A stretch of DNA of 64,000 nt. It comes from Vampirovibrionaceae bacterium NZW_1234 (GTDB lineage Bacteria > Cyanobacteriota > Vampirovibrionia > Vampirovibrionales > JAGQHJ01). Location of the stretch: contig JBGUGD010000031.1 of NCBI GenBank assembly GCA_041697335.1, forward strand, positions 40,566-104,565, written 5' to 3'. Below are positions 45,001 through 48,000 of this stretch, piece after piece; within the stretch, counting starts at the first letter, position 1, and every line of letters starts with the position of its first letter. Position numbers: made by a program.

Positions 45001-48000
45001 GTTGAAACACTTTTGGAACGAAATGCCATTGCCATGGATACCATGGTGACCGTGTTTTTTACGATAACACCGGATTTGCAGTCCCTCAATCCGGCAACCG
45101 CCCTGCGTGAAGTGACGGATAAATGGCAGTCGGTTCCGCTTCTCTGTTCACAAGAACCGGTTATCCAGGGCATGCTACCCCGGTGCCTGCGAATTCTGAT
45201 TCAATGGAACGCACCAAGCCGCCCTGAAGCCATAACCCCTGTCTACCTGGGGGAAGCTCGCTTATTACGACCCGACCTCTAGATGGATTTCCAATATCGA
45301 TCTTATCTCAATATTGTTGCATGTAGCGCTTTCGAGCTAATACTTTTGAGTATCTTCCCAAAAAACCATGTTTCGTGCATTATGTGTTGCTATTAGGATT
45401 GGGATACTTTGTTCCTAATATGGTTGCACACGTCTCTTATAGATTGCTTAGAGAAAAAAACATTACATAAAGACTTAGCTGAATGACATACTTGCCAGCC
45501 GCCTACTATTACCCCCATTACCCAGCGTACTACTCGGGCTATGGTTCTTATGGTGTAACGCCGTTTCAGACGGCTTCTACATTCGTTGAAGCCCAGAAAC
45601 CCTCTCCGCCGGCAAAAGTTCGCAAAGGCCCCTATCCGCAAAGCCATGACGAATTTCATCACGTGACCCAATGTCCGTCTCTGACCATGAAGAATACGGC
45701 CTACATTCCGCGCAAGCAGAATGTTGAGTTGCCTCCACCCAAGAATCCTTTTGTTAACGGGATTTTCAGGTATGCCGGTTACTTAAACGAATTGGGCGAA
45801 GCCTTTGTTCATCCCATGCATGCCGCCTTTACCGCCATTAATCCAAAGTGGACCGGCATGGCCCATAAAGTGGTCGATGCCACCTATAAGGCCGTCTTTG
45901 CCTATACCTGTATGGATGCCGCCTATTCGGGCGCACAGGCTTACTTTAGAGCCCGACAAGATGGAAATAGTGAAAAGATGGCGGCCATGAAAGGACTCCA
46001 GGCCGGTGTCGGCCAAGGTATTTTCCAACTGCTTGCCAGCTATTATGTCCCGGCAGAAATTATCAAGCGCGTCTTTAACCCCATGGGAACAAAGCTGGGG
46101 ATGATGCTCGGAAAAACAAAGACCATGGGTACCGTAGGCGGAACGGCTCTCAGCCTCCTGGCCATCCCGCTGATGGTCAAGGTTGTGGATCCGCTCTCGG
46201 AAAAACTGGTCCATGCCCTGTGGACCAAACCCACCAATCGCTTTCTGGAACGACGCGACCAAGGAGAAGTGGCACGCTCGTTCCATGCCCCCCATAAAGC
46301 CAACGCAGCCGTTCTATAGCTTATTTCTGGCTCCATATCCGAAGAAGACCAGAATCTTTGAACCCGCGATTGAAGACCGCACACCTTGGTTCGATACACT
46401 AAAATAGAAATTACATGGTCTGCAACGTAAGGTCCGTCATGCGTCGCTCTGACTGGATTAGAAATCACTTTGTCCCCTGTGCCGGCGGTATTCTGGTGGC
46501 CATTGTCGCGGGCCTGTTGGCGAAATGGAGGTTCCCCGAGAGCACGCTTCTGGTGCTTCATGTGGTGGCGATTCTTTCTGGCGTCATTACCGGGGCATTA
46601 ACCCGCCCGGGAACAATCGATCATCGGGGTACGCACGGCTTTGTGGTCCTTGGCTTTTTTTGGTTCGCCTATATTGTCCTGCATCCGTGGTTGTTTCCAG
46701 CCCAACTCTCCATCAGTGACTGGTTTTTCGTCGTTATGCTGAACAATATCGAGAACGGCTTTCTACTGATTGGCGGACTTTATCTGGGGAGTCGCCTCCA
46801 GGAACTGGAAAAAAAGGGATTTCTTACGCCACCCAGCAAGCCTGCGGTCTCAGCCCGTCGTCAGGTTGCATCACAACCCATACAGCCCAACAACATTTGG
46901 CAACAGCTCACTAAAAAAGAGTTGCCCCCGGAAGACCCTTCCTAATTGTCTCGTTGTAGGCCTACGACAGAGACACGTTACGTTGAATTGCAAACTGGAA
47001 ATGATGCCCCTGGTGCTGGATGTCATAGTGGGTTTCACCTGGTCCATTGCCAGGACGCACTGTCACATCCGCTCCGTGGCTCTTTAATTGGGTGACCAGG
47101 GCATGCACAGCATCGCGATGCTGAGGAGCAAACCGATACATCTTGATGGGCTGATCCTCAGGGCCAGTATAGACAACGTCACTGGCCTCCTCCCAGGTTC
47201 GTTGGTCCGTCAAGGGCAAGGCCCGTTTAATGTCACGTGTTCCTTTATCCAATGCACGATGACGGGTATCCAGAAGAAGCAGTGAGAGTTGTTGCTGCAT
47301 GGCTTGGGCAAAAGCCCTGGAGGGAAAAGCCCGGTTGGTCTGAAACAGACTGTCTGCACCATTTTCCAGTGTTTTCTGAGTCGGCAGGGAATTGCTATAC
47401 AACAAGGAGAAGACAAACTCATGCCCTTGATATCGACCAGCAATGCTTCTTAATCCTTGTTCTGCGGTGATTCGAACATTGTCCTCCGTTGCTGTGGGCA
47501 CAACCCGTCGGAAGGCATCGGCCAAAATATTGAAGTTCGCCTTGTCAGACGCACCTGGGGCATCGAGAAAGGCATACACAGCGCCCGGGGTTCCTTCGTG
47601 ATACAGCCACGCCTGTCTGGCATTCATAAATGTCTTGGATGAGATGTGTAAGTCTTTCTGTAGTGCAACGATGGTCTCGCGCAACGTTTCGGAACGCTGC
47701 TGTAAGGTTATACGGCTTTCCGGAGAATCCGGAAGGGCTGTATAGATAATTCGATGGGAAGGTTCCTGACTTCCAAATCGATTTATCCCGCCGTTTATCT
47801 TTGTCGTTACCTTCTTTGTCGCCGGCATCACCGGCCTCAAAGGCACTTGAAATTTCACAGCCATCCGTCTCTCCCGATTACTCCCATCTGTGTGAATCTA
47901 AACGTCTTATTGCCTCGACAGATCTGCATTATCCAAAGCCCAAAGCCCCTTGTCAAAATTCGTAGATATCCCCCATCGATCTCCGAATCCCCTTCCAAAT

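Follow-up and report, generated by a model that had tools for sequence, protein, structure and literature searches.

A prokaryotic branch of the mitochondrial MTFP1/MTP18 family in Vampirovibrionia and its possible action on eukaryotic organelle membranes

Background

Among host-associated bacteria, Legionella delivers through a type IV system the effector LncP, which mimics a mitochondrial membrane protein. MTFP1, also known as MTP18, is a protein of the mitochondrial inner membrane. According to the accessible text of PMC9636241, division in mammals does not require MTFP1, which instead governs the integrity of the inner membrane, the ANT-dependent proton leak and the permeability transition; control of the integrity and of the proton leak is described for the mouse protein. 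The available portion of bioRxiv 10.1101/2025.01.05.631328 describes it as a fusion inhibitor without which membrane subdomains do not undergo peripheral fission. The excerpts of PMC7050145 at hand call its mechanism poorly understood and also report an orthologue in the jakobid Andalucia. A review (PMC12477198, available in part) gives MTFP1 a GTPase domain and 750 residues; this description was set aside, as it is apparently mixed up with mitofusin.

The published model for the predator V. chlorellavorus involves a type IV system (PMC4451040, accessible sections). About three quarters of the Gastranaerophilales carry only export-related flagellar genes, and those without full flagella keep flhB, fliI and flgG, for which secretion has been postulated (bioRxiv 10.64898/2026.04.24.720558, accessible text); partial flagellar sets had been reported earlier (PMC5877343, in the sections available).

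In this work we analyzed P0001, an MTFP1/MTP18 homologue encoded by a bacterium of the order Vampirovibrionales (genome G000). All coordinates refer to the window, that is, the whole stretch of 64,000 nucleotides that was analysed.

Results

The P0001 gene and its product

The P0001 gene is an intact open reading frame that encodes 278 aa at 45483..46319 on the forward strand, where the genome-wide survey's note had placed it. MTP18 (PF10558) is the sole Pfam family matched by the protein (E 8.4e-08); residues 94-242 align with positions 19-170 of the 171 in the profile, which agrees with the whole-profile match claimed in that note, and the score now obtained, 32.8 bits, is above the cut-off of 25. 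Residues 1-86 (45483..45740, +) form a candidate export leader that is predicted to be disordered, with pLDDT <50 at residues 1-36, 52-60 and 62-74 of the AlphaFold model; it is Tyr/Pro-rich, the enrichment being found at its start, and it has no hydrophobic signal-peptide stretch. An alternative start at Met69 (45687, +) would give a 210-aa form, and a 210-aa twin, P0002, is identical to P0001 from Met69 on. The MTP18 core, residues 87-251 (45741..46235, +), is predicted to be all-helical. R96, Y141, A185, P190 and D236 show little or no variation among 25 bacterial sequences. The most hydrophobic stretch of the core covers residues ~214-243, and the protein has a single 19-residue stretch above 1.2 on the Kyte-Doolittle scale.

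The GC content of the gene (0.526) lies at the 61st percentile of the genes of >=200 aa in the same genome; its third-position GC is at the 56th percentile and its codon score at the 66th percentile of the genome. The gene has no introns and its neighbours are bacterial; it is native to the chromosome. No sigma-70-like promoter was seen in 44600-47100, where 2.6 were expected, and no terminator-like site was seen after the gene.

A paralogue in the same genome, P0004 (277 aa, contig C34), had been missed in the survey's note. A search with P0001 alone returned two proteins only. A profile of 32 bacterial sequences, P0001 and P0004 included, matches exactly P0001 and P0004 in G000. P0004 falls under the Pfam MTP18 cut-off, and the bacterial profile, of which it is itself part, matches it at 1e-40.

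Directly upstream of the P0001 gene lies the gene of an AroH-type chorismate mutase (44920..45282, +), and a sensor kinase and an OmpR-type response regulator are encoded at 41336..44681 (-). On the other side, the gene at 46415..46945 (+) encodes a 176-aa hydrophobic protein without Pfam or NCBIfam match, for which no conserved linkage with MTP18 genes was seen. This regulator is found within 4 kb of an MTP18 gene in 11 of the 35 genomes of the order in which both were detected; the P0001 gene lies on the opposite side of the regulator cluster and belongs to a different subclade from the regulator-adjacent MTP18 genes. Among 55 bacterial loci no neighbour is common to loci beyond single orthologue groups, and gene order tells little. 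As regards the environment, the DNA runs that hold at least half of the words sampled from the stretch (4 of 13 listed) are metagenomes of hot springs and microbial mats; they come from 3 studies, possibly with one data set filed twice, and no RNA run is listed.

Homology to MTFP1 and predicted fold

A profile of 16 bacterial cores with no eukaryotic rows (A2) matches 2148 representatives at E<=1e-3, and it retrieves the MTFP1 of the moth Cydia at E 2.3e-28, among 18 matches. When A2 was aligned by hhalign with a profile of 15 mainly algal proteins (A5), a probability of 100 and an E of 3.1e-41 were obtained over 155 columns, and in the Atlas the 30 matches were all MTFP1 clusters (score 0.92, 201 of 256 features). 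In a wider profile of 46 bacterial and eukaryotic rows (A4), Y, P and D are invariant in 46/46 rows, and R, D and A are kept in at least 90%; the conserved polar motifs are in register between the bacterial and the eukaryotic majority patterns. Per-column hydropathy of 88 bacterial and 110 non-viral eukaryotic rows is correlated (r 0.89), and, averaged over the family, three segments of moderate hydrophobicity stand out, which are a little less pronounced in the bacterial rows.

In the AlphaFold model of P0001 a disordered N-terminus is followed by a helical core at pLDDT ~80-95, and its best named matches in BFVD are all MTFP1 proteins (E 5e-4 to 4e-2). The core of a compact homologue, L011, was modelled at pLDDT 97 and pTM 0.87, and this model superimposes on the models of the Tupanvirus and Terrestrivirus MTFP1 with TM 0.76-0.77; the predicted fold is the same as that of the MTFP1 family. 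As in the survey's note, no solved structure stands out by fold, and none is related by sequence: P0001 has no sequence relative in the PDB at E<=10, A4 gave 7 chance-level matches there, the best of which is a designed repeat protein, and the best fold matches were a designed helical protein (Z 9.0 at rmsd 5.4) and, in a further search, a match with Z 7.7 at rmsd 6.1. Generic helical bundles reach values of this order. Rows for BAR-domain and ABC-transporter folds were not counted.

By every sequence and model test that was run, P0001 is a true MTP18/MTFP1 homologue; the homology proposed by the survey holds in the reciprocal retrieval, in hhalign, in the Atlas and in the predicted-fold matches. 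Some bacterial members carry the PF10558 tag in public databases under the name hypothetical. The claim of novelty also stood, since no report of a bacterial MTFP1 was found in the accessible literature, with supplementary tables outside the search; the bacterial members are a new, prokaryotic branch of a known family.

Distribution among bacteria

At E<=1e-5, A2 matches 164 of the 401 genomes of the class, which are kin rather than independent samples. By family the matches are distributed as follows: f1, 3/4 plus this genome; f2, 11/19; f3, 21/25; f7, 127/189; f8, 1/9; none was obtained in f4 (2 genomes), f5 (104), f6 (30), f9 (12) and f10-12 (6). The L021-type MTP18 protein of f7 is found in Gastranaerophilales records, which identifies f7 as Gastranaerophilales; f5 we tentatively take to be Obscuribacterales. 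By the Pfam model alone, 37/401 class genomes exceed the cut-off. With the wider profile A4, 37 of the 49 Vampirovibrionales genomes match, and f9 gave 0/12; four weak matches in the 30 genomes of f6 (E 0.0015-0.009, L149 among them) and one stop-containing match in 61 genomes of f5 were not counted. These counts are lower bounds, because the forms with long insertions are harder to detect. The rarity stated in the survey's note (8 of 189,784 genomes) was thus a product of the Pfam threshold, and the occurrence in f7 shows that the family is not limited to the algae-attacking lineage.

Bacterial MTP18 genes are multi-copy (1-3 or more per genome), and some subfamilies have insertions of 100-150 aa. 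Two named records of V. chlorellavorus, which is in culture, have two genes each; three further named records that were examined have none. Outside the class, 174 genomes of other Cyanobacteriota gave no MTP18 match, and a scan of other bacterial groups with one exact 11-residue pattern, which is insensitive, found only L261 and L262 in two deltaproteobacterial bins; both were rejected as bacterial members, given that their genes are split by introns and lie on eukaryote-like contigs. MTP18 is an old multi-copy family of non-photosynthetic cyanobacterial relatives that include algal predators and gut dwellers.

N-terminal leaders and export machinery

Tyr/Pro-rich N-termini are found in 16 of the 2162 genes of G000, vs 3 at an interior position, and P0004 and several homologues have a leader of the same kind as P0001; for these two reasons the 278-aa form is favoured over the 210-aa form. 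The N-terminal extension has a median of 52 aa in bacteria vs 21 in eukaryotes, and the bacterial ones are unconserved. A second, larger leader class in G000, also present on the homologues L008 and L011, carries an RFG motif, which occurs in 49 and 59 of the 2162 proteins in the first two 20-residue bins and in 6-13 proteins per bin beyond residue 60. With a composition classifier for RFG leaders, which is weak (AUC 0.78) and was trained on one genome with first-ATG starts, 21 of the 27 homologues scored from Vampirovibrionales, all of them among the 88 bacterial rows, are above the 75th percentile, P0004 is at the 55th and P0001 at the 7th. RFG leaders are also found on malate/lactate dehydrogenase, pyruvate kinase, an FtsH-like protease and an M16 peptidase; since these are housekeeping-type enzymes, the leader stays only a candidate export signal.

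G000 encodes a full flagellum and a second, diverged export/basal-body gene set; FlhA, FlhB, FliP, FliR, FliI, FliF, FliE, FlgC and FlgG are present in two diverged versions. The FlhA of contig C2 is over the FlhA equivalog cut-off, and the copy of C32 is under both the FlhA and the SctV cut-offs. The second flagellum-derived set may export effectors. No account of the RFG leader motif or of a second type III system was found in the accessible parts of the literature, and VirB4 (PF03135) has no match in G000 (94.75% complete; the Caulobacter control was positive, and the bin may miss plasmids).

FlhA-family genes are found in 294 of the 401 class genomes, mostly with two matches, the maximum scored. 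In f5 the FlhA family is present in 1/104 genomes and MTP18 in 0/104; the 164 MTP18-positive genomes are all in families whose genomes are 100% positive for the FlhA family. Of the 294 FlhA-positive genomes, 130 have no MTP18 match, including those of f6 (0/30) and f9 (0/12); the co-occurrence of MTP18 and FlhA is essentially one lineage contrast.

Phylogeny of the family

In a FastTree phylogeny of 210 non-redundant rows, 88 bacterial rows, some of which are database proteins counted as bacterial from their place in this first tree, are split from 122 eukaryotic and viral ones. Two IQ-TREE runs on hand-picked subsets also gave unrooted trees with the bacterial rows on one side: 39/39 with support 100/98 in run 1 (39 bacterial plus 40 others, 142 columns; the bootstrap did not fully converge), and 32/32 with support 100/96 in run 2 (32 plus 34, 144 columns). 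Five bacterial rows had no first motif after alignment. On both trees the bacterial label changes only once. End branches are long (median 0.54-0.8, bacterial tips up to 3.9), and the eukaryotic backbone has no clear branching order. In AU tests, for groups picked after the first tree had been viewed, a grouping of the bacteria with the core chlorophytes (Chlorella-type) was rejected (p 0.016), and groupings with the whole green/algal-virus clade were not rejected (p 0.53 and p 0.40).

The eukaryotic members include Rhizamoeba, Diaphanoeca, Acrasis, insects, Pythium, Porphyridium, Chromera and Chlorella, a range that covers amoebozoan, choanoflagellate, insect, heterolobosean, oomycete, red and green algal, and chromerid lineages. 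This breadth, together with the Andalucia orthologue, indicates that eukaryotes have had the family for a very long time. Giant viruses of algae and amoebae also carry it; MTP18 was confirmed in 101 viral contig stretches, prasinovirus-like contigs included, and the copies from algal viruses branch within the green-algal forms and have retained leaders that, read by eye, are transit-peptide-like. No viral member of the divergent P0020/P0022 subfamily turned up in the scans made for it.

The bacterial clade and the AU results point to a single old event; we place it close to, or earlier than, the divergence of Vampirovibrionales from Gastranaerophilales, with duplication and loss afterwards. 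Because of the breadth of the eukaryotic range, the gene probably passed from a eukaryote to a bacterium. The survey's note had proposed capture from prey or shared descent: a recent Chlorella-like capture is contradicted by the AU test, and an older capture or shared descent is compatible with it.

Discussion

Judging from the roles of mammalian MTFP1, the shared MTP18 core most likely organises or seals a bioenergetic membrane. As to which membrane, we tentatively lean, at a little under an even chance, towards a membrane-organising protein that would be exported, by way of its variable N-terminal leader and the second flagellum-derived type III apparatus, into the organelles of a eukaryote. 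The gene would have crossed once between a eukaryote and the ancestor of both orders, more likely from the eukaryote; a variable, uncleaved and disordered leader would take the protein through the second apparatus into a eukaryotic cell to which the bacterium is attached; the helical core, which is moderately hydrophobic, would then insert in the mitochondrial or plastid inner membrane and act as, or compete with, the host's own MTFP1, so that membrane integrity, ion leak or fusion/fission would be changed to the benefit of the bacterium. Export is favoured because the leaders are variable, divergence is fast, paralogues occur, a second export apparatus is present and viruses provide a precedent; the case is circumstantial, and delivery to prey organelles is plausible. 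The low rank of the P0001 leader in the RFG classifier and the RFG leaders of housekeeping-type enzymes count against it, as does the retention of MTP18 in gut Gastranaerophilales, for which the accessible parts of the papers name no eukaryotic host cell. Searches of G000 for the organelle-type carriers Mito_carr, SFXN and TLC found none, and two of these searches matched nothing, controls included.

A role in the bacterium's own membrane is a serious possibility and comes close behind export, owing to the gut retention, the housekeeping RFG leaders, the FlhA-positive genomes that have no MTP18 match and the atypical P0001 leader. One ancient acquisition would have been domesticated in the bacterial cytoplasmic membrane, where the protein, like mitochondrial MTFP1, would serve as a scaffold, keeping proton leak low or shaping the membrane, e.g. 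at division or in an attachment pad. Its retention in small gut genomes of f7 and in most genomes of the order, its stable position beside a core two-component system in 11/35 genomes, a hydropathy that follows the eukaryotic family, a P0001 leader outside the RFG class and the control of inner-membrane integrity and proton leak by mouse MTFP1 (PMC9636241, accessible text) are all in line with this role. However, patchy loss, duplication, long branches, long insertions and unconserved leaders suggest a host-facing protein, and the known partners of MTFP1 (ANT, prohibitin-rich subdomains, Drp1) are eukaryotic; G000 has no Mito_carr match, which is an uninformative negative.

If export is extended to the whole group, the Vampirovibrionia outside f5, the gut Gastranaerophilales included, would be ancestral manipulators of eukaryotes, with a flagellum-derived type III system and many different leader-tagged cargo proteins, one of them an ancient and multi-copy MTFP1 mimic that targets mitochondrial or plastid inner membranes of the host; this we consider rather doubtful. 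A variant in which eukaryotic MTFP1 derives from the bacterial branch is less likely.

According to that last idea, the family originated in Vampirovibrionia, or in ancestors of theirs, and reached stem eukaryotes before their last common ancestor, which would make MTFP1 a mitochondrial protein of non-alphaproteobacterial descent. The clean split between eukaryotes and bacteria agrees with it; the bacterial sequences are more diverse than the sampled eukaryotic ones, but the latter were picked by similarity to the bacterial or the algal profile (150 of 2148 and 120 of 713 matches listed), and midpoint rooting, which shows the eukaryotes as one clade among bacterial subgroups, is not evidence under unequal rates. 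Since other Cyanobacteriota and f9 have no match, f5 and f6 have none that is convincing, and a position of the bacteria within the eukaryotes, sister to green algae, is not rejected by the AU tests, we regard a bacterial origin as improbable. That the gene was captured recently from Chlorella-like prey, or several times independently, is less probable still: Chlorella vulgaris, C. variabilis and C. ohadii do encode the family, and P0001 and the chlorophyte forms have in common a Pro and a Gly immediately ahead of the first motif, but the grouping with core chlorophytes is rejected, the bacterial label changes only once on each tree, and GC and codon use are native. An artefact, either a compositional match of hydrophobic helices, which the survey had itself raised, or eukaryotic contamination of the bin, is almost certainly the wrong explanation, because in spite of a Pfam score just 8 bits above the cut-off and of the real contamination in the two deltaproteobacterial bins, the polar motifs are conserved in register, hhalign and reciprocal retrieval succeed, the gene lies on a 104-kb bacterial contig and homologues occur in 164 genomes.

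Independently of its site of action, the bacterial branch offers compact cores of 150 aa for the expression and structure of MTFP1, and its natural variation singles out the invariant residues of the family. It adds prokaryotes to a family that the accessible parts of the papers treat as eukaryotic only, and it bears on the origin of the proteins of mitochondrial dynamics. If the protein is exported, as we tentatively favour, it would be the first candidate organelle-targeting effector for V. chlorellavorus, the only cultured predatory cyanobacterial relative, and would point to an action of the gut Gastranaerophilales on eukaryotic cells.

Compared with eukaryotic MTFP1/MTP18, the bacterial proteins share the whole 150-aa core, the in-register polar motifs, the hydropathy and the predicted all-helical fold; in contrast, their leaders are long and variable, identity is ~30%, the second motif has a Phe where most eukaryotes have Trp, and bacteria often have at least two paralogues, some with the long inserts. 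Algal MTP18 paralogues (Chlorella, Porphyridium, Chromera and ochrophyte-like forms) have the same core after a long N-terminal extension that, read by eye, resembles transit or bipartite signals of the plastid type; they occur in the prey of V. chlorellavorus, and, as far as core chlorophytes are concerned, they do not form the direct sister group of the bacteria. The MTFP1 proteins of the giant viruses Tupanvirus, Terrestrivirus, Yasminevirus and Fadolivirus are likewise encoded by parasites, and they are the best structural matches (TM 0.60-0.77); nonetheless, the viral proteins are made within the host cell whereas the bacterial protein would need export, and the viral contig copies fall inside the green-algal sequences, with the bacterial clade apart. 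LncP of Legionella is likewise a eukaryote-type organelle membrane protein and belongs to another family; in contrast to its type IV delivery, G000 lacks a VirB4 match and encodes a second export set derived from the flagellum.

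Variation and genomic neighbourhood of the MTP18 family

Some subfamilies of the MTP18/MTFP1 family (PF10558) carry an insertion of 100-150 aa in the core, placed between its penultimate and last hydrophobic segments; members with this insertion are encoded at loci L013, L015, L016, L021, L024, L026 and L029. In 11 genomes an MTP18 gene adjoins the genes for an OmpR-type regulator and its kinase, on a side that varies; this pair lies at 41336-44681 in the window and is also found at loci L242 and L243. The regulator is kept in 45 of the 49 genomes of the Vampirovibrionales, and its top NCBIfam match is RpaB, with a score under the RpaB cut-off. 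At the latter two loci, which belong to two genomes, the MTP18 gene is followed on its 3' side by a gene for a membrane protein and by one for a small P-loop ATPase that matches Pox_A32/AAA_10 weakly (L242:9510-10779 and L243:9951-11263), an arrangement that suggests an integrated element.

Algal genomes encode MTP18 paralogues with plastid-type presequences, as judged by eye, and the copies on prasinovirus-like contigs are nested among the green-algal forms, with leaders that by the same judgement resemble these presequences (proteins P0146, P0225, P0231, P0138, P0152, P0058 and P0151; loci L032-L111). A literature search aimed at a plastid role for the family found none. Two further loci, L261 and L262, have intron-split genes on long eukaryote-like contigs inside two deltaproteobacterial genome bins, and these contigs are likely the result of mis-binning.

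Proteins with an RFG leader

Genome-wide, about 120 proteins have a Pro/Arg/Ser-rich N-terminal leader that ends in the motif RFG; examples in the window are encoded at 4230-7187, 8337-9047, 9099-10160, 10447-10998, 11103-14312 and 46965-47864. The leader, a candidate export or targeting signal, is present on orphans and on enzymes alike, the latter including a malate/lactate dehydrogenase, an FtsH-like protease, an M16 peptidase and, in another genome (G110), pyruvate kinase. In a further example (39597-40814, forward strand) it precedes an FHA domain and a region that weakly matches the EDR1/CTR1/ARMC3 peptidase-like domain (E 0.021), an architecture that is effector-like. The 950-aa protein at 36497-39349 (reverse strand) contains hydrophobic helices as well as a Tyr/Pro-rich stretch in its interior, after which comes the motif RFG; it had no match in a Pfam search, and its N-terminal part matches unnamed Melainabacteria clusters (Atlas, 0.91).

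A second set of flagellar-type export genes

The window includes a flagellar cluster with fliJ, fliK, flgD and flgE (53948-58208, forward strand). In addition to the flagellum's own set, the genome has diverged flagellar-type export and basal-body genes on contigs C32 (10113-21070; loci L142 and L143), C8 (66049-68536) and C29 (178709-179809). Within the class, FlhA-family genes occur in every genome sampled of families f1-f4, f7-f9, f11 and f12 and in 29/30 genomes of f6, and are almost missing from f5. The diverged second set may be a flagellum-derived type III system that has so far gone undescribed in the class.
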